NCBI GenBank assembly: GCA_035288145.1 | Contig: DATEAX010000041.1 | Span: 1-32,500 of the forward strand | Source: Patescibacteria group bacterium | GTDB lineage: Bacteria; Patescibacteriota; UBA1384; UBA12157; JAENIV01 | Length of the DNA stretch: 32,500 nt | Direction: 5' to 3' | Part shown: positions 3,276 to 32,500 of the stretch, in pieces | How positions within the stretch are numbered: the stretch's first letter is position 1 | Layout: every line of letters starts with the position of its first letter | Translations under genes and position numbers: made by a program | Notes under the pieces: model-generated | The model's input: the letters and a program-made list of their open reading frames with translations, nothing else | What the model was told of the DNA's origin: nothing | The model's database searches: none

Positions 3276-4532
3276 ATGCAACCGCCGAAAGATTACGCCA
3301 ATTTATTTCTGGATATGAATGCTTTTTTTGCTTCGGTTGAACAACAAGTCCAGCCGTCTTTACGAAACAAGCCAATTTGCGTTGCTCCCTACCCGGGCAA
3401 TACCGGCTGCTGTATTGCCAAGTCGTATAAAGCCAAAGCTTTCGGGGTGAAAACCGGCACCCTCGTAGGGGAGGCCAAAAAGCTTTGCCCGCAGATTATC
3501 GTTCTGGAATCCCGTCCCGAACTTTATCTGTTTTATCATCGGGAAATCGTCAAGGTCTTGAAAAATTTCAGTCCTTTTTTGAGAGTTCTTTCGATTGATG
3601 AGTTTAACATCAAATTAACTGGCCTGGACCAAAATCGAGAAAAGGCTCTCGAGATGGCCAGAAAGATCAAAGAAACCATTTTGAAAAAAGTCGGCGATTA
3701 TCTAACTTGTTCGATTGGCATCGGGCCGAATATGTGGCTGGCAAAAGTCGCCGGGGAGCTTGGAAAAGCCTGCCTGCCGGCAGGCAGGCCCGACGGTTTG
3801 GTGGTCGTCGCTCTTGAGGAATTGGGAGTGTGGTATCGGAGCCTGGATTTGATGGATCTTCCTGGGATAAATGTTGCCATGGCGCGCCAGCTTCATCATC
3901 GCAAAATTAAAACTCCCTTTGATTTTTATCTCCAACCCTTGTTCAATCTTTCCCGCTGGTTTGGTCATCCCGGCCGGGTCTGGTTTTATCGTTTGCGCGG
4001 CTTTGAAACCGATGAGATTGAGCCGGCAACCAAATCCATCGGTCATCAGCATGTTTTGGCGCCGGAGTATCGGACAATCGCCGCGGCCCGGCGGGTGTTG
4101 GTAAAACTTGCGGAAAAGTGCGCCCAGCGTCTTCGGGCGAAAAATTTGTGGACGGGAGGAGTATCTCTTGGGATAAAATTTTTGAATGGACCGTTTTGGG
4201 AAAAAAATGCCGCCACCGACCTTGTTGCCGATAGCCAAAATATCCAAAGAATTGCTCTTTCGCTTTATGATGCTTGTCCGATTCAAAAACCGCCTTTGAG
4301 GATTGCCGTGACCCTTTTCAATCTCACCCAAGTTCGCGGCGAGCAGATTTCCTTGTTTTCTAAAATCGAGAAATCGCGCCGCCTGTCGCAAATGATGGAT
4401 GAGATTAACGATAAATACGGTCCGGAGACAATCTATCCGGCCTCGATGTTCGGAGCCTCGGAGGCCGCCCCGACGAGGATTCCCTTTGGCAATCCTGCCA
4501 GAATTGGCAATTTTGACCAAAATGTGGTATAA
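3276..4532 (+). CDS. dinB: Y-family DNA polymerase IV
   Basis: The N-terminal motif is LDMNAFFASVEQ. It also has SIDEFN and the GIGPNMWLAKVAG...KP.G helix-hairpin-helix region, which are typical of DinB/UmuC. Confidence 0.9.
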   Translation: MQPPKDYANLFLDMNAFFASVEQQVQPSLRNKPICVAPYPGNTGCCIAKSYKAKAFGVKTGTLVGEAKKLCPQIIVLESRPELYLFYHREIVKVLKNFSPFLRVLSIDEFNIKLTGLDQNREKALEMARKIKETILKKVGDYLTCSIGIGPNMWLAKVAGELGKACLPAGRPDGLVVVALEELGVWYRSLDLMDLPGINVAMARQLHHRKIKTPFDFYLQPLFNLSRWFGHPGRVWFYRLRGFETDEIEPATKSIGHQHVLAPEYRTIAAARRVLVKLAEKCAQRLRAKNLWTGGVSLGIKFLNGPFWEKNAATDLVADSQNIQRIALSLYDACPIQKPPLRIAVTLFNLTQVRGEQISLFSKIEKSRRLSQMMDEINDKYGPETIYPASMFGASEAAPTRIPFGNPARIGNFDQNVV

Positions 4533-26342: not shown

Positions 26343-27308
26343 ATGACTGACGAAGCAATCATCAAAATTAGAGCCGGTGATGGGGGAAACGGTTTAGTGT
26401 CTTTTCGGCGGGAAAGATTTGTCCCTAAGGGCGGTCCAGACGGCGGCGATGGCGGCAAGGGCGGCGATGTTTATTTTATTTGCGACAATAATGTTCATAC
26501 TTTAAGCGATTTTGCCCGGAAAAAAGAATGGCAAGCCGAAAGCGGAGAGCATGGTAAGACTAAGAGACAGCGCGGGAAAAATGGTCAGGATCTGATACTT
26601 CCTCTTCCGCCGGGAACAATCGTTACCGAAAGAGACCAAAAATCGGTTCTTTGCGATTTTAAAAAAATCGGCGAAAAAGTTGTTATCGTCCGCGGCGGCC
26701 TGGGCGGCTGGGGGAATGTTCATTTTAAGAGCGCCACTTCCCAATCCCCCGCTTTTGCCAAAAAAGGGGAACCGGGCGAAGAAAAGACTTTGCACATAGA
26801 ATTAAAGTTAATTGCCGACGCGGGTTTAATTGGGCTTCCGAATTCAGGCAAATCCACCTTGTTGGCGCGGATTTCCAATGCTCATCCTAAGATCGCCGAC
26901 TATCCTTTTACCACTTTAGAGCCGAATTTGGGCGTTGCCAAAATCAGTGGTAAAGAGTTTGTTATTGCTGATATCCCCGGACTCATCGAAGGCGCGTCAT
27001 CTGGCAAAGGTTTGGGCGATAAATTCCTCCGCCATATTGAACGGACCGATGTTTTAATCCATTTGATTGATATCAATAGCCAAAATCTTATCGGTGATTA
27101 CCAGACGATTCGCGCCGAACTTCAAATTTGGAATCCCCTGCTTTGCAAGAAAAAAGAAATTGTTATTTTAAGCAAAGCCGATACTCTGCCAGAAAAAGAA
27201 GCCCAAAAAATTGCCAAAGATTTGTCGGGCAAAATAAAAAAAGAGGTCTTCATTATTTCGGCTGTTTCCGGCAAGGGGTTAGAAGAATTTTTAGAGAAAC
27301 TATTTTAG
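26343..27308 (+). CDS. obg: GTPase Obg/CgtA
   Basis: It has the Obg fold (IKIRAGDGGNGLVSFRRERFVPKGGPDGGDGGKGGDV) and G motifs (GLPNSGKST, DIPGLIEGA, SKAD). ATG 26343 is preferred over the track start at 26322. Confidence 0.93.
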   Translation: MTDEAIIKIRAGDGGNGLVSFRRERFVPKGGPDGGDGGKGGDVYFICDNNVHTLSDFARKKEWQAESGEHGKTKRQRGKNGQDLILPLPPGTIVTERDQKSVLCDFKKIGEKVVIVRGGLGGWGNVHFKSATSQSPAFAKKGEPGEEKTLHIELKLIADAGLIGLPNSGKSTLLARISNAHPKIADYPFTTLEPNLGVAKISGKEFVIADIPGLIEGASSGKGLGDKFLRHIERTDVLIHLIDINSQNLIGDYQTIRAELQIWNPLLCKKKEIVILSKADTLPEKEAQKIAKDLSGKIKKEVFIISAVSGKGLEEFLEKLF

Positions 27309-27311
27309 ACC

Positions 27312-27337
27312 ACTCCCACCTACGAGGTGAGATTTTT
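27312..27337 (+). terminator. obg terminator hairpin, also the left copy of the island-bracketing repeat
   Basis: The stem-loop cccacct-acg-aggtgag is followed by attttt. The 21-mer at 27315-27335 recurs inverted at 32361-32381. Confidence 0.65.
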
Positions 27338-27512
27338 GCAGGTTAAGGGTTTGGATTTAGATGCTTGTTTAACGGCTCAGGGTGTGTGAGCCGTTGGGTT
27401 CTCAATTTTCTTGGCGTTGGATAACGTTCTCTTGTTAAATATAGGTAAGAAATTCCCCTTCTTTTATATTTTACTCTAGCAATTTTTGACATTTTTGAGA
27501 TTTTGCATTCTC

Positions 27513-27551
27513 ATAACCTATTTTGGGTTATACCACAATAGGATATACAAT
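27513..27551 (+). promoter_or_regulatory. Promoter with an overlapping inverted repeat (C-box-like) for a leaderless HTH gene
   Basis: TTGGGT (27523-27528), a 17 nt spacer, then TACAAT (27546-27551). The predicted TSS lies only about 4-5 nt before ATG 27562, and there is no SD. The inverted repeat ATAACC-n7-GGTTAT (27513-27531) overlaps the -35. Confidence 0.5.
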
Positions 27552-27561
27552 ATAAACAAGT

Positions 27562-27783
27562 ATGTCAAAGTCAATTTATTCAAAAGAATATAAAAGTGTT
27601 TTAGAAAAGCTTAAAAAAGCCCGTTTTGAAGTTGGGTTGAAGCAAGAGGACGTGGCCCAAAAATTAAAAAAGCCCCAATCTTATATTTCAAAAATAGAAA
27701 GGGGCGAGAGAAGAGTTGATATTACCGAATTAAAAGAGTTGGCAAAAATTTATAAAAAGAATATAAACTTTTTTGTTGAGTAA
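27562..27783 (+). CDS. XRE-family HTH protein, controller (C) protein-like
   Basis: The 73 aa protein has the HTH_3 pattern [48 protein letters not shown]. It lies 2 nt upstream of the next ORF. Confidence 0.8.
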
Positions 27784-27785
27784 TT

Positions 27786-28790
27786 ATGTCTAAAATTCAA
27801 GAATTATTATCAGGCAAAACGGATCAAGTTAACTATGAAAAAATAGTCAAAGATTATCCGTGGATTATAAAAAGGGGACAAAATTGTATTTTGAGTCCAG
27901 ATAGTGACGGTTTATTATGTGGTCTATTTATGTCCACTTATTTAGATTGGCGAATAAAAGGTTTTTATGATGGGAAGGTAATGTTGTTAGATAAAGATAT
28001 TTCGGCTAAAGATTGCGTATTTTTGGATATGGAAGTTTTTAGAAAGGATATAAAAAGCGTTGGTCACCATATGGTCCAATTTAATAAAAAGAAAAGGCCG
28101 TCAAACTGGAATAATTATAAAAATTGCATCCAGCCAAACAATTTACGAAATTATGACGGATACAAGGACTTCCGCTTAAAATATCCGTTAGCGACTATAC
28201 ATTTTTTAATTGGGATAGTTGGCTCAAAAATAAAATTAACAATTCCTCAATCGGCTATTTGTCCATTGTTTTATGTTGATGGCGTGTTCAAAAACTTATT
28301 TGGCTATCCGGAAAATTGTATTGATTGGTTAAGATATTTAGATGCTAAATCAAATAAAAATAACTTGCATGAAATATTTTTTAACGAGCACTATTCTGTT
28401 TATAATTTAATGGTGGCCTTAAAGGACTTTTTTACGCAAATCAGTGAAATTAGCGAAAATAGAAATGGTAATGATAAAATAAAGATTTCTAACACAAAAG
28501 GAGAACCAGTAAACCCGAAAATGAGTGGCAAAACTTGCGAATTAAATGAAGAAGAAAAGCAAAAATCAGAAAAGTTTTTAAAAATTTTATCGGGATTGAC
28601 GAATTGGAATTATAAAAAAGAAAATTGGCAGTGGGATAACTTAAAAATTTATCAGTTTAGTAAATTTGCCATTAAACCGAATAATAGAAATTTTGAAGTA
28701 ATGATTGCCAAAAACCCAATTTCTTGGGCAATGACTAGCGGCTTAGCCATAGAATATACTATAGATGACAAAAATATTTTGTTAAAATAG
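27786..28790 (+). CDS. Uncharacterised 334 aa protein. By position it is the nuclease/effector candidate. It has DHH-like motifs.
   Basis: I recognise no family with confidence. The candidate motifs are ILSPDSDGLLCG (DxD), CVFLDME (D) and SVGHHM (a variant of DHH). It is co-directional with the C-like gene and converges on the methyltransferase gene with a 9 nt overlap. Confidence 0.55.
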   Translation: MSKIQELLSGKTDQVNYEKIVKDYPWIIKRGQNCILSPDSDGLLCGLFMSTYLDWRIKGFYDGKVMLLDKDISAKDCVFLDMEVFRKDIKSVGHHMVQFNKKKRPSNWNNYKNCIQPNNLRNYDGYKDFRLKYPLATIHFLIGIVGSKIKLTIPQSAICPLFYVDGVFKNLFGYPENCIDWLRYLDAKSNKNNLHEIFFNEHYSVYNLMVALKDFFTQISEISENRNGNDKIKISNTKGEPVNPKMSGKTCELNEEEKQKSEKFLKILSGLTNWNYKKENWQWDNLKIYQFSKFAIKPNNRNFEVMIAKNPISWAMTSGLAIEYTIDDKNILLK

Positions 28791-30233
28791 TTTTCGACTA
28801 GTCGTTCCTTCCTCTTTAAGACGTTTTTTGGCTAATTCGCAATAGTCATTAGATATATCTATTCCAATATAATTTCTCTCTAATTGAATAGCCGCCAATA
28901 CTGTTGTTCCGCTACCCACAAATGGGTCAAGTACAATACCTGTAGGTGGACAAAAACATTGAATAAAATCATACGGCAAACGATCGGGAAATGTTGCTGG
29001 ATGTTGATGTTTAAGACGAGTACCATCTCCGGCTGTCATATACTCCCAAATTGTGCCACGACATTTCCTTAGGTTTATGGTAATTGGACGAGTAGCGATT
29101 CTAACACCATTAGTGAGACGAGTACCGCCACCAGTCATTGTTTTACCACCATGTTTTGACGGGATTTTTAATGGTTCTTTATTAAAGTATTGCGGCCGTT
29201 CTCCTTTCAGAAAAATTGGCATATATTCATGGTCAACACGGAAACGTTTATTCCACCAAGCGCCCTCTGCACCATATTTTCTGTAAATTACTGTTTCAAA
29301 TAATTTAAAGCCGATGTTGTCAACCCAATCTATGATAGTTCTAAAAGAAGTTAGCGATTTGCCAAAATCTTTTGTTTGATCTTGGATAACCATAACTGCT
29401 ATGCCGCCTTCTTTCAGAACGCGATATATTTCTTTACCGGTAGCGTGTAAATCGAAGCTAAAACCATTATATTTTCTGATTCCGTCGTAAGGTGGAGATG
29501 TGACAACTAAATCAATGGAATTGCTAGGAAATTTTTTAAGCTCGCTCACTGCATCGCCACAAATAATTTTATTTAGTGGCACTGTGCTAAATTTTTTTAT
29601 TCCTTTTTGAGGTAATAATTCCGTTGCCTGTAATGCTTCTTCATTTTTAATTACATCAATAACAATACCTTGAATAACAATTCCTCTGTCTTTTTTAATA
29701 ATTATTGGCTCAATAGTCTTATTGGCTGGCTGTAACCTTATGTACCCCTTTTCTTTGTAAAATTTTTTAAGCGTTGCTTCATAGTTATCTAATAAAGCAA
29801 CTACCTTTTGTCCATTTTCGGCAACGCTTTGTTGTTTAACTAAAATTATATCGCCATCTTTGATGTTTTCATCTATCATACTATTACCCAAAACTCGTAA
29901 GGCATAAAATTCGCCAGAATGAGGAAGTTTATTTTGTGGCACAGCGATTGTTTCTTTGTCTTGTATTGCCTCAATTGGTTGACCGGCGGCAATAATACCG
30001 AGTAAAGGAATTTTTATCATTGTATTTATGTCATATATACCAAGAGCACGAGGTCTATTTTTGTCTCTTTTTAAATATCCTAAATCTTGGAGTCTTGAGA
30101 TATGAAAATGAGCCGTTGAAACAGAAGAAAGTTTAAGATATCTTTTAACCTCTTCTAAAGAAGGAGCATAATTATGTCTGGTTATAAAGTTCCTGACAAA
30201 ATCAAGAACTTGTTTTTGGCGTTTTGTAAGCAC
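28782..30233 (-). CDS. LexA (wHTH plus S24 peptidase) fused to a beta-class N4-C/N6-A DNA methyltransferase
   Basis: - Residues 1 to about 200 align end to end with LexA. They include LTKRQKQVLDF, the cleavage site IPLLGIIAAGQPIEA, the Ser motif LRVLGNSM, the Lys motif EATLKKF, and the C-terminal GIVIDVIKN.
- The remainder carries methyltransferase motif IV (DLVVTSPPY), followed much later by motif I (VLDPFVGSGTT).
- There is no stop or Met at the junction.
- The start is probably GTG 30233, 8 nt after aaggag. The track start GTG 30242 overlaps the SD. Confidence 0.85.
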   Translation of the reverse strand: MLTKRQKQVLDFVRNFITRHNYAPSLEEVKRYLKLSSVSTAHFHISRLQDLGYLKRDKNRPRALGIYDINTMIKIPLLGIIAAGQPIEAIQDKETIAVPQNKLPHSGEFYALRVLGNSMIDENIKDGDIILVKQQSVAENGQKVVALLDNYEATLKKFYKEKGYIRLQPANKTIEPIIIKKDRGIVIQGIVIDVIKNEEALQATELLPQKGIKKFSTVPLNKIICGDAVSELKKFPSNSIDLVVTSPPYDGIRKYNGFSFDLHATGKEIYRVLKEGGIAVMVIQDQTKDFGKSLTSFRTIIDWVDNIGFKLFETVIYRKYGAEGAWWNKRFRVDHEYMPIFLKGERPQYFNKEPLKIPSKHGGKTMTGGGTRLTNGVRIATRPITINLRKCRGTIWEYMTAGDGTRLKHQHPATFPDRLPYDFIQCFCPPTGIVLDPFVGSGTTVLAAIQLERNYIGIDISNDYCELAKKRLKEEGTTSRKLF

Positions 30234-30258
30234 TTGACACACTCCTTTTTACTGATTA

Positions 30259-30294
30259 CGATTATATTGTAATCGAAAATAAATCGAAAGTCAA
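30259..30294 (-). promoter_or_regulatory. Promoter of the LexA-methyltransferase gene with a palindromic operator over the -10
   Basis: On the minus strand: TTGACT (30294-30289), a 17 nt spacer, then TACAAT (30271-30266). The 17 bp palindrome CGATTATATTGTAATCG (30259-30275, 7 of 8 arm pairs) covers the -10. Two direct AATCGAAA copies lie 11 bp apart (30271-30278 and 30282-30289). Confidence 0.6.
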
Positions 30295-30329
30295 TTGTGG
30301 ATAACTTTGAACTAAGAAAGGGAGTTAAA

Positions 30330-30476
30330 ATGGCAAGAGAGAAAACAAGCCGAAGGGTAGCAAAAATTGCCTCCAAACAATTAAAAAGCAAAAGATCTTC
30401 AAAGCCAGCGAAAGCAACTGCCGGTAGTTCTTTGACGCAGTACGAGCCAAGACGCAAAATGAGGAAAAAGAAATAA
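30330..30476 (+). CDS. Small highly basic protein (48 aa), hypothetical
   Basis: SD aaagggag lies upstream of ATG 30330. Hand translation gives MAREKTSRRVAKIASKQLKSKRSSKPAKATAGSSLTQYEPRRKMRKKK. It is transcribed divergently from the LexA-methyltransferase gene. Confidence 0.45.
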   Translation: MAREKTSRRVAKIASKQLKSKRSSKPAKATAGSSLTQYEPRRKMRKKK

Positions 30477-30494
30477 AAATCATCAGAGAGGAAA

Positions 30495-30857
30495 ATGAAA
30501 AATTATCATTCAATTATTTTAGATACTGAATTTAAAGATCCAGAATTTGTCAAAAAATGGAAAATTTTGGGCAAGAAAAAATCTCGTCTCAATCCTTGGT
30601 GGCAATTAAAAGTTGAAGTACCAGAAGATAAATTTGACGATTTTATTAAAGAAGGCCAAAAATTATTACTAAACGATAAATTTTATTTTCATATCTATTG
30701 TGAAGGCGAACTCTATTTCGTTTGGCCAAAAAGAATTTTTAAAGTCGACTCAGATAAATCAGATTGGCAAGAGATGCTTGATTATGCCAAACAGCGCCAC
30801 ATTCCAGATGATCAAATGGATATACCTGTCGTCAGCTTTGACACTGAAGCATATTAA
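30495..30857 (+). CDS. Hypothetical protein (120 aa)
   Basis: SD agagagg lies upstream of ATG 30495. The composition is protein-like, but I recognise no family. Confidence 0.6.
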   Translation: MKNYHSIILDTEFKDPEFVKKWKILGKKKSRLNPWWQLKVEVPEDKFDDFIKEGQKLLLNDKFYFHIYCEGELYFVWPKRIFKVDSDKSDWQEMLDYAKQRHIPDDQMDIPVVSFDTEAY

Positions 30858-30876
30858 ATAAATGTAAAAAGAAAAA

Positions 30877-30898
30877 GCTCTCGGATTTCTCCGAGGGC
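30877..30898. terminator. Bidirectional intrinsic terminator
   Basis: The sequence gctctcgga-tttc-tccgagggc forms a 9 bp stem. It is flanked by an A-run upstream and a T-rich tract downstream. Confidence 0.7.
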
Positions 30899-31009
30899 TT
30901 TGAGATTTGAGAAAGTTTGTGTAAGCAAGCTGGACGGTTCGGAGTCTTTACGTGTAGCCACATTTTTCGCAAATGCCCTGGTGGTTATTTTCCCCTCCGC
31001 AATGACATG

Positions 31010-31369
31010 TCAGGGCATTTTCTTTGTTTTCCATTCTTCTCTCGCTCTGACAATTGCTTCATTCTCCCTTTTCCATCTTATCTCATCACATATCAGGAAG
31101 GCGATAAAGTAGATAACGAGCGAAGCACCGAAACACCCGAGATAGATCCATCCAAGAAGGTGGCTAGCCATGAAGTATGTCTTACCCTTGATCCAGTAGA
31201 CCACCAACGTGGCGGCAAAGATACCAATCCAAGAAAAGAAAAGGATCTTTGTGCCGATCCAGGCATCTTGCCAAGAAGTGTCGGGCGGCCCAGGACTCCT
31301 TCCCGGCTCGTAATCTGGATCCTGCGGTTGATTGTCAGGTCCGTAAAACTGTCCATAACCAGTGTACAT
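31010..31369 (-). CDS. Membrane protein (119 aa), hypothetical
   Basis: A strong SD (aaggaggt) lies upstream of ATG 31369. The protein has a Pro/Asp-rich N-terminus followed by 2-3 TM helices. The overlapping plus-strand ORFs lack an SD and do not look protein-like. Confidence 0.65.
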   Translation of the reverse strand: MYTGYGQFYGPDNQPQDPDYEPGRSPGPPDTSWQDAWIGTKILFFSWIGIFAATLVVYWIKGKTYFMASHLLGWIYLGCFGASLVIYFIAFLICDEIRWKRENEAIVRAREEWKTKKMP

Positions 31370-31506
31370 TGAGTTACCTCCTTATCGGAATGGCTTAATG
31401 ATAGCGTAAAAAAGCAGGAAAATCAAGCGGCCGAACAGCAAGACATCGGAAAGCTGGTTATAATCGTGTATAATAAAGTCGAACTAAAAATCATCGAGGG
31501 GAAAAA

Positions 31507-31680
31507 ATGAGCGAAGGTATTCGGATGAAAATATATGGTTATAACAAGACCGAGAGTACCTTGAGACCCCATGCGATCATCACTGATGAAAACAACAAAA
31601 AGGAAAAAGTAGTATTGACCGCGCTATCCGACGAAGAAGTTGACGCAAGAGCCAAGGAGTGGCTCAAAATAAGAAATTAA
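31507..31680 (+). CDS. Small hypothetical protein (57 aa)
   Basis: The -10 like boxes tggttataat and gtgtataat lie upstream at about 31454-31473. SD gagggg precedes ATG 31507. Hand translation gives MSEGIRMKIYGYNKTESTLRPHAIITDENNKKEKVVLTALSDEEVDARAKEWLKIRN. Confidence 0.4.
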   Translation: MSEGIRMKIYGYNKTESTLRPHAIITDENNKKEKVVLTALSDEEVDARAKEWLKIRN

Positions 31681-31796
31681 TGTCCAATTTAACAAAAGTC
31701 CTCGTAATAACTGACTAATACAATCCGCCCTACGAACATATGAATTAAAGTTCCCTGGATGATATTCCTATCTTCTTAAGAATGTAGGAATATTGT

Positions 31797-31840
31797 CAAG
31801 AAAAGTTATAATGAAATTCAAGAAAAGTTATAATGAAATT
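31797..31840 (+). repeat. Perfect 22 bp tandem duplication at the start of the ArsR-like gene
   Basis: The unit caagaaaagttataatgaaatt occurs twice back to back. Each copy carries a TATAAT-like box and an ATG. Confidence 0.9.
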
Positions 31841-32116
31841 ATGGAACGAAAGATTGCCAAAAGGATGGAAAGGGTGTTTAAGGGCGTAGCTCATCATAAA
31901 CGCGCCAGAATATTGGAATTCATTGCTAAACAAAATAACACAACGCTTTGGCAAATCAGCCAGGGTTTGGACATTGAATTTAGGAATGCCTCTCATCACA
32001 CCGAGATGATGGAAAAAGCCGGCTTAATTGAAAAACAATATGTCGGCCGTTCAGTAATGCATTTCCTTACCCCATACGGCCAAAAAGTTTATGATTTTAT
32101 GAAAAGCTTAGAATGA
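31841..32116 (+). CDS. ArsR/SmtB-like winged-helix transcriptional regulator
   Basis: It carries VAHHKRARILEFIAKQNNTTLWQISQGLDIEFRNASHHTEMMEKAGLIEKQYVGR. Alternative in-frame starts are TTG 31793 and ATG 31811, both inside the duplication. Confidence 0.7.
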   Translation: MERKIAKRMERVFKGVAHHKRARILEFIAKQNNTTLWQISQGLDIEFRNASHHTEMMEKAGLIEKQYVGRSVMHFLTPYGQKVYDFMKSLE

Positions 32117-32182
32117 AATTCATAGAATCATACGAATATGCGAATATCATAAAGAGATATTTTTAATCAGCAGATTGTTTTA

Positions 32183-32269
32183 TCCTCCTTCGCCCCGCTC
32201 TGGCGGGGCTTCGGCGGATTTCCACTCCGCCGAAATGGAGGAAAAGATACCGCCGACTCCTGTCGGCGG
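32183..32269. repeat. Cluster of three GC-rich CGGCGG-containing hairpins, possibly a three-way junction
   Basis: - Hairpin 1: GCCCCGC-tctg-GCGGGGC (32192-32209).
- Hairpin 2: TTCGGCGG-n9-CCGCCGAA (32210-32234).
- Both are enclosed by TCCTCC/GGAGGA (32183-32188 with 32237-32242).
- Hairpin 3: CCGCCGAC-tcct-GTCGGCGG (32250-32269). Confidence 0.7.
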
Positions 32270-32360
32270 AGTGTCATATGGTGCTATAATTAAAATAATT
32301 AAAGCAAGAAAATAAAAAAATCACCTTCGGTTTTATGGGGAAAAGTTGTCAATGACTTTA

Positions 32361-32381
32361 AAATCCCACCTCGTAGGTGGG
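32361..32381 (-). terminator. Minus-oriented terminator-like hairpin; inverted near-copy of the obg terminator
   Basis: The reverse complement cccacctacgaggtgggattt matches 27315-27335 at 20 of 21 positions. Confidence 0.6.
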
Positions 32382-32390
32382 CGCTGGGAT

Positions 32391-32408
32391 TGGGTCTGGG
32401 TCTGGGTC
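32391..32408 (+). repeat. Hexanucleotide microsatellite (TGGGTC) x3
   Basis: Read directly as tgggtc tgggtc tgggtc. It is preceded by the degenerate unit tgggat. Confidence 0.9.
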
Positions 32409-32419
32409 TGGCGCGGCTC

Positions 32420-32448
32420 TTGACAAACATTTGACATTTTAATATAGT
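32420..32448 (+). promoter_or_regulatory. Sigma70-like promoter for a gene beyond the window
   Basis: TTGACA (32420-32425), a 17 nt spacer, then TATAGT (32443-32448). An SD-like aaggaaagggtgg lies downstream. Confidence 0.55.
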
Positions 32449-32500
32449 TGTGATAGAGTTAAATCAAAGAATAAGGAAAGGGTGGAAAGAATTCATTCTT

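Follow-up and report, generated by a model that had tools for sequence, protein, structure and literature searches.

The window analyzed here (the whole stretch of 32,500 nucleotides) contains three tightly packed genes with the layout of a putative restriction–modification (R–M) system. The first, on the forward strand at 27562–27783, encodes a control (C) protein of 73 aa and of the Xre/HTH_3 type, which was recognized both by Pfam (HTH_3, E = 3e-14) and by PADLOC (Control_protein, E = 1e-7). Two nucleotides after its end, an ATG opens the 334 aa ORF of a candidate restriction endonuclease (R; 27786–28790, forward strand), an assignment drawn from the ORF list, its homologs, and their linkage to methyltransferases (MTases). 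The modification (M) gene, of 486 aa as listed, runs on the reverse strand (28782–30242) and converges on the R gene, the 3' ends of the two sharing exactly 9 nt (28782–28790). This geometry, including the 2-nt spacing and the 9-nt overlap with a convergent MTase gene, agrees to the nucleotide with what an earlier note on this DNA had reported.

The three genes sit in a low-GC island (27400–30900), in which the composition profile falls to 29–39% GC against 43–52% in the flanks, that is, an island of ~30% GC inside a chromosome of 45–50% GC. Contigs of other samples matched positions 27507–30300 at 90–95% identity and left the flanks unmatched, so that the portion common to other genomes extends over about 27500–30310; two small island ORFs (30297–30476 and 30495–30857) were not conserved together with the module. 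Both observations, the GC island and the near-identical copies lacking these flanks, give good support to the horizontal mobility of the R–M module. Around the island, neither direct repeats at the flanks nor integration sites in tRNA genes could be made out convincingly, a tRNA was the sole match in the Rfam scan, and tblastn of the R protein against annotated plasmids and phages returned no match.

Regulatory elements of the C–R operon and the M gene

Upstream of the C gene, two C-box-like operators were predicted from inverted repeats on the forward strand (27513–27546). Box 1 (27513–27531) is the palindrome ATAACC-N7-GGTTAT, and box 2 (27532–27546) reads ACCACAATAGGATAT, which contains AATAGG, the complement of the CCTATT in box 1. 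A candidate −10 element of the operon, TACAAT (27546–27551, forward strand), was read from the sequence, and its position is conserved in related loci; in at least 15 of them the HTH gene is preceded by the same arrangement of two boxes against the −10, and an HTH gene stands directly 5' of the R-family gene in at least 32. Since this candidate −10 lies just 10 nt before the ATG, the C–R transcript would be nearly leaderless; C and R are probably translationally coupled. The organization resembles that of C-controlled type II systems such as PvuII, BamHI, AhdI, and Esp1396I in several respects: R is immediately preceded by a small HTH gene of the Xre type; the promoter has paired palindromic C-boxes, and the start is near-leaderless; the MTase is convergent, of the beta class and the SPPY type (as M.PvuII and M.BamHI), with overlapping 3' ends; and the distribution is patchy, with atypical GC.

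The M protein departs from that scheme. The earlier note had referred to it simply as a methyltransferase, but the gene is not a plain MTase gene, and the fusion of a LexA winged HTH, an S24 autopeptidase, and a beta-class N6/N4 methyltransferase had been missed. Pfam detected LexA_DNA_bind (4e-17), Peptidase_S24 (7e-29), and N6_N4_Mtase (7e-40) in the protein; this complete LexA repressor/autopeptidase at the MTase N-terminus distinguishes the module from the C-controlled type II systems named above. The N-terminal part also scored above the cutoff of TIGR00498 lexA (E = 2e-53) and aligned end to end with the LexA of T. maritima (3k2z, E = 4e-34). In its translation, this complete LexA module (29643–30233, reverse strand) retains the A86-G87 cleavage site, Ser121 (in GNSM), and Lys159/160 (in LKK). 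The true start of M is more likely the GTG at 30233 than position 30242, giving 483 aa, because a ribosome-binding site (AAGGAG) occupies 30242–30247 and the homologs begin with M-[LI]-T. The methyltransferase domain (28785–29606, reverse strand) carries the catalytic motif TSPPY at residues 238–242, and its nearest solved relatives are 2zie, 8s9n (cytosine-N4 MTase), and 1boo (M.PvuII). Among beta-class MTases, SPPY rather than DPPY points to N4-methylcytosine, and both this motif and the nearest structures suggest that M is probably an N4-cytosine enzyme.

The promoter scan placed the −35 element of M at 30289–30294 (TTGACT) and its −10 at 30266–30271 (TACAAT), with a 10/12 match. Between the two lies a tandem direct repeat, TTTCGATTTATTTTCGATT (TTTC-N7-TTTC; 30271–30289, reverse strand), which is kept as (T/G)TTC-N7-(T/G)TTC in LexA-fused loci and was found in 17 of 27 LexA-fused upstream regions versus 0/59 of those with a plain MTase. 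This repeat is a candidate SOS-box-like operator for the fused LexA, of the type represented by the direct repeat GTTC-N7-GTTC of Caulobacter (PMC9578287). Its conservation between the −35 and −10 of M's own promoter suggests autorepression. Directly upstream of the −35, a DnaA-box-like motif, GTTATCCACA (30296–30305, reverse strand), was detected in 24/27 LexA-fused upstream regions versus 1/59 plain-MTase ones. MTases of the M.SsoII, M.EcoRII, and M.MspI types autoregulate through an N-terminal HTH, and M likewise bears a DNA-binding domain N-terminal to the MTase; unlike theirs, its fused module is an entire LexA that retains both the Ala-Gly cleavage site and the Ser/Lys dyad, by virtue of which repression could be relieved by DNA damage. 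No description of a LexA–methyltransferase fusion was found in the literature search.

Linkage of the R family with methyltransferases

With a homology cut-off of E ≤ 1e-3, the R family comprised 947 clusters at 90% identity and 414 representatives at 50% identity, scattered patchily over bacteria and archaea; the cluster look-up gave no named member. A survey of 85 loci related to the R gene revealed a beta-class N6/N4 MTase directly adjacent in 80, the other five holding a truncated R. The MTase-linked loci span Patescibacteria, Planctomycetota, Bacteroidota, Ignavibacteriota, Clostridia, Elusimicrobiota, Chlorobi, and DPANN archaea. Three gene orders were observed, namely R-><-M (67 loci), M->R (11), and R->M (2), and the overlap between the R and M genes mostly measures 4–9 nt. 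Both genes were intact in 77 loci and a broken R accompanied an intact M in five, while an intact R with a broken or absent M was encountered in none. In one homolog (P0218), a TSPPY MTase is fused to an R-family domain, with no other MTase nearby.

The linkage of homologs to methyltransferases, which the earlier note had named as a check on its proposal, was present in 80/85 loci; together with the asymmetric decay, the C-boxes, and the M–R fusion, it gives strong though indirect support to the claim that the ORF stands where C-controlled type II R–M systems have their endonuclease. From this gene context, the 334 aa protein very probably supplies the DNA cleavage of the system. The comparative decay of the loci lends indirect support to the view that R behaves as a toxic partner that is not retained without the MTase. 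Palindrome avoidance was most pronounced for GATC and GGCC, a common pattern that is not attributable to the R–M system here.

The R protein, too, sets this module apart from other C-controlled type II systems, as it matches none of the restriction-enzyme models of Pfam, NCBIfam, or PADLOC. Pfam, NCBIfam, and PADLOC scans of the R family contained no PD-(D/E)XK, HNH, GIY-YIG, PLD, or half-pipe signature, and the top 50 Foldseek matches of R included no structure of these five kinds, in line with the earlier remark that the first three were not to be seen. Neither the query nor diverse members gave a credible match to any entry of Pfam, NCBIfam, PADLOC, or PHROGs, and comparison with PDB sequences, whether by the single query or by a 63-member profile, produced only noise (a capsid protein, ATP synthase b).

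Conserved residues and predicted fold of the R protein

Residue conservation was counted over 63 diverse R-family members, among them proteins sharing no more than ~20% identity with the query. The three motifs quoted in the earlier note are all present, the DxD motif within ILSPDSDGLLCG (residues 35–46), CVFLDME (residues 77–83), and SVGHHM (residues 91–96). Five residues are invariant in 63/63 members (D41, D81, H95, K132, and N177), and close to these come D39 (62/63), an E or D at position 83 (62/63), G93 (61/63, with Asp there in a single member), and D165 (60/63). Position 94 varies among His (39), Asn (14), and Gln (10), so that, of the H94/H95 pair that had been put forward as key residues, H95 holds and H94 does not. 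The conserved residues of the C-terminal part are W274, S313, A315, Y324, and T325.

The AlphaFold2 model of full-length R (pLDDT 87, pTM 0.89) exhibits two domains joined by a linker of lower model confidence. The N-terminal domain (residues 1–225; 27786–28460, forward strand) reached a pLDDT of 95.8 when modelled alone, and the model, the Foldseek matches, and the conservation outline a DHH-like alpha/beta core; all the invariant polar residues lie in it (D39, D41, D81, E/D83, S91, H95, N118, K132, D165, and N177). The C-terminal alpha/beta domain (residues 231–334; 28476–28787, forward strand) was delimited by secondary structure and pLDDT. It differs between subfamilies, two of which, one including the window's protein, have N-domains that are ~90% identical, and distant homologs align over residues ~15–190 only. 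The divergence of the MTase correlated more closely with that of the C-terminal part of R (rho 0.58) than with that of the N-domain (rho 0.39), the values being 0.67 and 0.32 when only pairs with similar N-domains were compared, the C-terminal correlation being confounded by the physical adjacency of the genes. We propose that the N-terminal domain would be the catalytic one and that the C-terminal lobe may serve in DNA recognition and/or dimerisation.

Restriction glycosylases, which are said to have been found via R–M gene context and to have a novel fold, set a precedent for a restriction enzyme that is not a phosphodiesterase, such as a glycosylase/AP-lyase like R.PabI, and R produced weak Foldseek matches to nucleoside hydrolases (E 0.3–2). 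Those matches, however, have a probability ≤ 0.04 and a TM of about 0.12, the top 50 are free of half-pipes, and an invariant set of D/D/D/H/D residues is usual in metal-dependent phosphoesterases. As to a modification-dependent enzyme, obligate pairing with an MTase that makes its own substrate is not expected. We therefore hold a non-phosphodiesterase or modification-dependent R to be very improbable.

When the N-domain model was searched against the PDB with Foldseek, the best match was RecJ–Cdc45 (7bhi_B; E = 6.4e-3, probability 0.96, TMq 0.35), followed by the DhhP phosphodiesterase (9r99_A; E = 6.8e-3, probability 0.96, TMq 0.41), after which the next match falls to E = 0.22 and probability 0.38. 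Cdc45 (8ouw_E) and the DHH domain of PF0399 (5yh1) were also within the top 8, so that DHH proteins stand at ranks 1, 2, 5, and 8 in the N-domain search and at ranks 1–2 in that of the full model. In the viral structure library, RecJ, NrnB, and DHH phosphohydrolases head the list for the R model. The DHH/DHHA1 enzymes (RecJ, archaeal RecJ-Cdc45/GAN, NrnA, DhhP/GdpP, and family II pyrophosphatase) thus come closest to the N-domain in structure, at a TMq of 0.35–0.41, below the usual same-fold threshold of 0.5, and an rmsd of 6.4–7.1 Å.

Motif by motif, the correspondence is partial. The model places D39 and D41 directly after the strand 33–36, followed by G42 and the helix 40–53 (motif I), and D81 at the end of the strand 77–80 (motif II). 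The Asp-His-His of motif III is not kept in the R family, which has Gly for the Asp (GHH or G[NQ]H) and retains only H95 of the two His as invariant; D165, which the full model puts where a helix breaks, is a candidate for motif IV. The order of these elements, a DxD after strand 1, a later D, a His motif, and a further Asp, is that of DHH enzymes, and the NPN-LR element that follows the His motif of R is similar to the INPNLRD of RecJ. In NrnA, the Mn2+ ligands are D51, D110, H135, and D185, the Asp of DHH is essential, its mutation killing activity, and the first His is a metal ligand (PMC4081065); the conserved R residues follow the same order as these ligands. R is two-lobed with a linker, like DHH/DHHA1 enzymes. 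In the DHH domain, helices surround a parallel sheet of five strands. The core of R is more compact than theirs, the helices flanking strands 2–4 of DHH domains being seemingly swapped for a hairpin and a loop in the R models, and no GGGH/DHHA1 lobe was found, a GG(x)H-like string occurring in only 2/63 members.

At the sequence level, no homology with DHH enzymes was detectable. Comparison with Pfam DHH (PF01368), which the earlier note had advised, gave a match neither for the query (E ≤ 1) nor for any of the 63 members (E ≤ 10), the R-family profile recovered no DHH protein among the PDB sequences, and no DHH protein was seen among the ~2,500 ORFs of related loci. By hhalign against E. coli RecJ and a RecJ/GAN alignment (a shallow one, of five RecJ/GAN sequences taken from PDB alignments), the probability was about 1%, and GHH was not paired with DHH. 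The suggestion that the R motifs recall motifs I–III of DHH enzymes is hence supported only as a resemblance of fold: motifs I and II and the structural neighbours RecJ–Cdc45 and DhhP speak for it, motif III and the profile tests against it.

These negative profile tests, the low TM values and E-values of about 6e-3, the missing DHH Asp and DHHA1 domain, and the SIS domains, dehydrogenases, and receiver-like domain that fill the rest of the match lists are what one would expect if R were an endonuclease with an independent Rossmann-like nuclease fold, its DxD / D / xHH pattern and Foldseek matches reflecting convergence on a generic, carboxylate-rich metal site of parallel-sheet proteins instead of descent from DHH enzymes. 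Against this reading, DHH proteins are rare in the PDB (by estimate about 0.1% of chains) and yet top both the PDB and the viral-library lists, the gap between the two DHH matches and the next (probability 0.96 vs 0.38) is wide, the conserved residues follow successive strands in the order of DHH motifs I–IV, and the two lobes and linker parallel DHH–DHHA1. We accordingly consider such an independent fold rather unlikely, and describe R as DHH-like by fold resemblance, a partly supported, model-based assignment, and not as a demonstrated member of the DHH family. Other folds were tried in the same comparison. An HAD phosphatase was considered for its DxDG after strand 1 with conserved S/T, K, and D, and no HAD structure appeared in the top 50 neighbours; nor did any PIN structure, nor any Toprim, whose motif order is moreover reversed.

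Cdc45 is non-catalytic, and the canonical DHH triad is degenerate in R, so that R could be a non-catalytic, Cdc45-like DNA-binding partner of the MTase or a DHH-type phosphoesterase of small molecules or oligonucleotides. Possible roles for such a protein are a nucleotide- or signal-molecule-degrading effector and a specificity/targeting subunit. The characterised DHH enzymes considered here are exonucleases or have small substrates, acting reportedly on ssDNA or RNA ends, pApA, c-di-AMP, pAp, or pyrophosphate (PMC4081065, among others). The locus itself speaks otherwise: C-protein control with C-boxes is a hallmark of a product toxic before methylation is established, an intact R never occurs without an intact M while a broken R with an intact M does, and the gene-order variants and the M–R fusion fit classical type II and IIC organization; the strict retention of five acidic/His residues makes it unlikely that R is non-catalytic. 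A function other than that of a DNA endonuclease consequently appears improbable to us. One preprint reportedly describes endonuclease activity for a RecJ.

Proposed mechanism and its meaning

The reading that we favor, as probable though by no means secure, is that R is the endonuclease of a mobile C-controlled type II R–M module, a C–R operon converging on M, with a DHH-like phosphodiesterase in its N-domain. This domain would be a divalent-metal (Mg2+/Mn2+) phosphodiesterase, its metal ion or ions held by D39/D41, by D81 with E83, and by H95, which follow strands 1, 3, and 4, respectively, and by D165, residues that would act as motifs I–IV do in DHH enzymes. The scissile phosphate would be placed by K132, N177, N118, and R121. 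The C-terminal lobe, which is variable and lies where DHH enzymes have the DHHA1 lobe for substrate binding, would recognize the DNA sequence and probably also mediate dimerisation. R would cut unmethylated double-stranded DNA at the site guarded by M, probably through N4-methylcytosine (TSPPY). After entry of the module into a new cell, binding of the C protein to the C-boxes would delay R expression, and M would repress its own promoter through the fused LexA domain on the TTTC-N7-TTTC repeat. DNA damage, which may include that caused by R cutting under-methylated host DNA, would trigger RecA-stimulated self-cleavage of M, lifting repression and increasing methylation.

Surveys of restriction enzymes recognize five catalytic folds (PD-(D/E)XK, HNH, GIY-YIG, PLD, and half-pipe; PMC2441816), DHH/RecJ being mentioned neither there nor in a second survey (PMC4081073), and our literature search found no paper on DHH-type restriction enzymes. 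The large unnamed R family, with its predicted DHH-like core, would thus have a fold so far unreported for restriction enzymes. A bolder form of the proposal, which we advance tentatively and with more doubt than confidence, is that R represents a sixth type II architecture, a stripped-down DHH/RecJ-like two-metal phosphoesterase domain turned sequence-specific double-strand endonuclease, coupled in CPR bacteria to damage feedback by a LexA-fused M. The enzyme so described would be common in uncultured bacteria and archaea, in hundreds of sequence clusters.

If true, one more catalytic architecture would join the handful known for restriction enzymes, and the DHH superfamily, made up mostly of exonucleases and small-substrate phosphodiesterases, would prove adaptable to site-specific duplex cleavage; a partner of a DNA methyltransferase with toxin-like behavior would differ from housekeeping DHH genes. 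The R family could bring new cleavage specificities from uncultured organisms and would provide an annotation handle for roughly a thousand "hypothetical proteins". The LexA–MTase fusion suggests that the SOS response and the restriction–modification balance are linked, which can be put to the test; this balance, and the way in which such selfish modules keep from killing their hosts, is a question of long standing.

Genomic context of the R gene

The candidate restriction endonuclease gene R (27786-28790, forward strand; ATG start, 334 aa) begins exactly 2 nt after the C gene (27562-27783, forward), which encodes a 73-aa helix–turn–helix protein (HTH_3, E 3e-14; PADLOC "Control_protein", E 1e-7). 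Its 3' end overlaps by exactly 9 nt that of M (28782-30242, reverse), whose product has a DNA methyltransferase domain (N6_N4, E 7e-40), and the arrangement described in the earlier note is therefore exact in the window. The composition profile revealed a GC content of 29-39% across the C-R-M stretch versus 43-52% in the surrounding chromosome segment, which carries ordinary housekeeping genes (gyrB, gyrA, infB, obg, M23 peptidase, and glycosyltransferases). Two further ORFs lie in this low-GC island, one lysine-rich with 59 aa (30297-30476, forward) and one with 120 aa (30495-30857, forward). Neither matched a known family, and neither recurs next to C-R-M in other genomes' loci, so both are probably either cargo unrelated to the module or spurious ORFs.

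Across 5.8 billion proteins searched, 947 clusters of R homologs were recovered (E <= 1e-3), all labelled "hypothetical" or unnamed, and an exhaustive search found 414 homologs among 50%-identity representatives. No credible match for R or for 63 diverse members was obtained in Pfam, NCBIfam, PADLOC, PHROGs, or PDB sequences; the R family is real, large, and unnamed. One distant member, P0181 (459 aa), has an extra C-terminal region of ~125 residues (~335-459) without a Pfam or PHROGs match. In contigs representing one genome per species, the hosts comprised Patescibacteria, Planctomycetota, Bacteroidota, Ignavibacteriota, Clostridia, Elusimicrobiota, Chlorobi, and DPANN-type archaea, and a sequence search found no R copies on annotated plasmids and phages. 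A scattered distribution of this kind is what horizontally transferred modules typically show. Groundwater and aquifer-soil metagenomes contained the window's own module, and a variant 90-95% identical (window 27000-31000, runs X15/X16) occurred in another, groundwater sample in a different genomic context and without the window's flanks; the C-R-M module thus occurs in more than one genome. The assembly of a metatranscriptome run from that groundwater sample also contained contigs of this variant, a weak indication that the module may be transcribed, as these contigs are possibly DNA carry-over.

To analyze gene neighborhoods, ORFs were called in 85 related loci and searched with profiles from the window's R, C, LexA, S24, and methyltransferase segments. 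A beta-class methyltransferase of the same family was immediately adjacent to R in 80/85 loci, usually overlapping by 4-9 nt, and in all five loci without it the R-family gene was truncated. The orientation was convergent in 67 loci, M upstream of R in 11, and R upstream of M in two; with three gene orders in use, the R–M association is more than the chance legacy of a single ancestral arrangement. Both genes were intact in 77 loci, R was broken beside an intact M in five, and an intact R beside a broken or missing M was never observed, the pattern expected if R is lethal without M. In locus L087 (5001-6872), a distant homolog that is a single chain of 623 aa (P0218) joins a TSPPY-bearing N6_N4 methyltransferase to an R-family domain, with no second methyltransferase nearby; as this M-R fusion is a single example, a frameshift artefact is possible.

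Upstream of the C gene, we found a two-box palindromic operator formed by the inverted repeat ATAACC-N7-GGTTAT (27513-27531) and a second element (27532-27546), leading directly into a TACAAT -10 box merely 10 nt before the C-gene ATG. At least 15 loci share this architecture, the boxes of other lineages being of the TATTCCAATTTGGAATA type. In classical C-protein systems, expression of the restriction enzyme is delayed by just such a combination of a nearly leaderless transcript, C-boxes, and a small HTH protein that regulates its own gene. Together, methyltransferase adjacency, decay asymmetry, C-boxes, and the M-R fusion bear out the earlier note's proposal that R occupies the endonuclease slot, as well as the linkage of its homologs to methyltransferases, and the assignment of R as the restriction enzyme of a type II R–M module is well supported, if indirectly. 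Among 4-base palindromes in host DNA (window 1-27300 and 30900-32500), the most depleted were GATC (59 observed/136 expected) and GGCC (106 observed vs 186 expected), which could reflect the window's R–M or other restriction systems.

Structure model and DHH resemblance of R

The AlphaFold2 model of full-length R, built on a 30-sequence alignment (pLDDT 87, pTM 0.89), has two domains, namely an alpha/beta N-domain (residues ~25-222) and a second alpha/beta C-lobe (231-334), joined by a lower-confidence linker (223-231); the N-domain modelled alone with 83 sequences reached pLDDT 95.8. Across 63 members, including some just ~20% identical to the query, all invariant polar residues fall in the N-domain, and alignment of distant homologs is limited to residues ~15-190. 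D41, D81, H95, K132, P134, and N177 were conserved in 63/63 members, D39, S91, N118, and W181 in 62/63, and D165 in 60/63, with position 83 acidic in all but one. These invariant residues, in combination with the C-protein control and the R/M decay asymmetry, disfavor the reading of R as something other than an endonuclease, such as a small-substrate enzyme of the DHH type or a partner without catalytic function.

The R gene is also a mosaic. Some homologs (R genes of L012-L017) are up to 90% identical to the window's R over the N-terminal ~150 residues (25-150) and just ~40% identical over residues 186-334, and their partner methyltransferase differs correspondingly, which suggests that recombination within R swaps the C-lobe together with M. 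Methyltransferase divergence correlated with that of the C-terminal part of R (Spearman 0.58; 0.67 for pairs with similar N-domains) versus 0.39 (0.32 for such pairs) for the N-domain. This pattern fits an N-domain that is catalytic and conserved, alongside a C-lobe sharing DNA specificity with the methyltransferase; the R 3' end abuts M, however, so the two are also co-inherited.

When the full model was compared with the PDB using Foldseek, the best matches were RecJ-Cdc45 (7bhi, E 7e-3) and the DHH/DHHA1 enzyme PggH, and a viral structure library was headed by RecJ, NrnB, and "DHH family phosphohydrolase" entries. For the N-domain alone, 7bhi_B and 9r99_A (Borrelia DhhP) ranked first (each probability 0.96, E ~6.5e-3) and the third match fell to E 0.22; 8ouw_E, which from its chain length we take to be Cdc45, and the PF0399 DHH domain were also within the top 8. 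DHH proteins account, by our estimate, for very little of the PDB, and their concentration among the matches is therefore not random. A glycosylase-type or modification-dependent restriction enzyme is a rival interpretation, but nucleoside-hydrolase structural matches were negligible, against the former, and the pairing with a methyltransferase is obligatory, against the latter.

The motifs that the earlier note quoted are present in R (ILSPDSDGLLCG, residues 35-46; CVFLDME, 77-83; SVGHHM, 91-96), and the conserved residues come after successive strands of the model in an order that matches DHH motifs I-IV: D39xD41G after strand 33-36 (motif I-like), D81 after strand 77-80 (motif II-like), G93-H94-H95 after strand 90-92 (motif III-like), and, farther along, the conserved D165 as a motif IV-like candidate. 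In Mycobacterium smegmatis NrnA, Mn2+ is bound by D51, D110, H135, and D185 (PMC4081065). After the His motif, the R-family C-x-N-P-N-x-L-R resembles by eye the RecJ I-I-N-P-N-L-R-D, a pairing that hhalign also makes, without significance. The canonical DHH aspartate, whose replacement inactivates NrnA (D134A; PMC4081065), is Gly in 61/63 R members, and the first His, a metal ligand in NrnA (PMC4081065), is H/N/Q in the R family. NrnA H316A, in the GGGH motif of DHHA1, is likewise inactive (PMC4081065), and a DHHA1-type GGGH motif was absent from all 63 R members examined.

The DHH proposal of the earlier note consequently stands in part. DHH folds rank first structurally and the motifs are ordered, but TM-scores were only 0.35-0.41 (rmsd 6-7 A), the Pfam DHH model (PF01368) matched 0/63 members, and profile-profile comparison with RecJ/GAN gave a probability of ~1% without placing GHH on DHH. 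The weak superposition and the failed profile comparisons favor a restriction enzyme whose DHH resemblance is convergent, against which stand the concentration of DHH matches in two structure libraries and the conserved motifs in DHH order. We read the N-domain as a compact, highly diverged DHH-like domain, and present evidence does not justify filing R as a DHH family member.

The LexA-methyltransferase partner and its promoter

The first ~200 residues of M (29643-30233, reverse) constitute a complete LexA, with a winged HTH and an S24 autopeptidase (TIGR00498, E 2e-53), aligning end to end with Thermotoga maritima LexA (E 4e-34) and retaining the Ala-Gly cleavage site (A86-G87), the catalytic Ser (S121, in GNSM), and Lys (K159/160). 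GTG 30233, located 8 nt after AAGGAG, gives M-L-T-K-R as in homolog starts and a protein of 483 aa, and is likely the start rather than the listed first in-frame GTG 30242. The closest structures to the methyltransferase domain were TTHA0409, M.PvuII, and a cytosine-N4 methyltransferase (8s9n). The domain carries TSPPY, a motif suggestive of N4-methylcytosine in enzymes of the beta class. Among related loci, the methyltransferase N-terminus bore LexA plus S24 in 22, the LexA HTH alone in four, and neither in the remainder; the fused forms were almost exclusively from Patescibacteria, and a literature search found no published description of such a fusion.

Two elements upstream of fused M genes are conserved and essentially absent at plain-methyltransferase loci. 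A tandem direct repeat, (T/G)TTC-N7-(T/G)TTC (30271-30289, reverse), lies between -35 and -10 of the M promoter and occurred in 17/27 LexA-fused vs 0/59 plain loci (L002, L005, L007, L009, L010, L012, L019, L038, L041, and others beyond the window). The DnaA-box-like TTATCCACA (GTTATCCACA / TGTGGATAAC; 30296-30305, reverse) adjoins the promoter and was found, in either orientation, in 24/27 vs 1/59. The repeat is built like the SOS box of Caulobacter, GTTC-N7-GTTC (PMC9578287), and is therefore a plausible operator for the LexA domain of M, likely an autoregulatory one. Within the window, no copy was found except at this promoter. The window also encodes a translesion polymerase (IMS + IMS_C; 3276-4532, forward) of the DinB/ImpB type, typically an SOS gene.

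Proposed mechanism and place among restriction enzymes

When the module enters a new cell, M would be expressed first, from its own promoter, and R would follow only once enough C protein has built up to activate the C-R promoter. Acting probably as a dimer, R would use its C-lobe to bind a specific site and would hydrolyse phosphodiester bonds by means of Mg2+/Mn2+ coordinated by D39, D41, D81 (with E83), H95, and D165, while K132, N177, N118, and R121 would contact phosphate. Methylation by M would protect host DNA, and the LexA domain would let M repress the promoter from which it is expressed. Upon DNA damage, RecA-stimulated self-cleavage at A86-G87 would free the DNA-binding domain, so that M is derepressed and protection returns. 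The context-based parts of this scheme are well supported, and metal-dependent cleavage by these residues is put forward as a proposal.

As a recognisable type II R–M module, the system does not represent a new kind. Five folds have been catalogued for type II restriction enzymes in two surveys that mention neither DHH nor RecJ (PMC2441816, PMC4081073), and the candidate nuclease R belongs to none of the five. As 56 characterised restriction enzymes were still unassigned in 2008 (PMC2441816), a characterised relative may exist in REBASE. R would be of considerable interest to specialists in restriction enzymes and nucleases.
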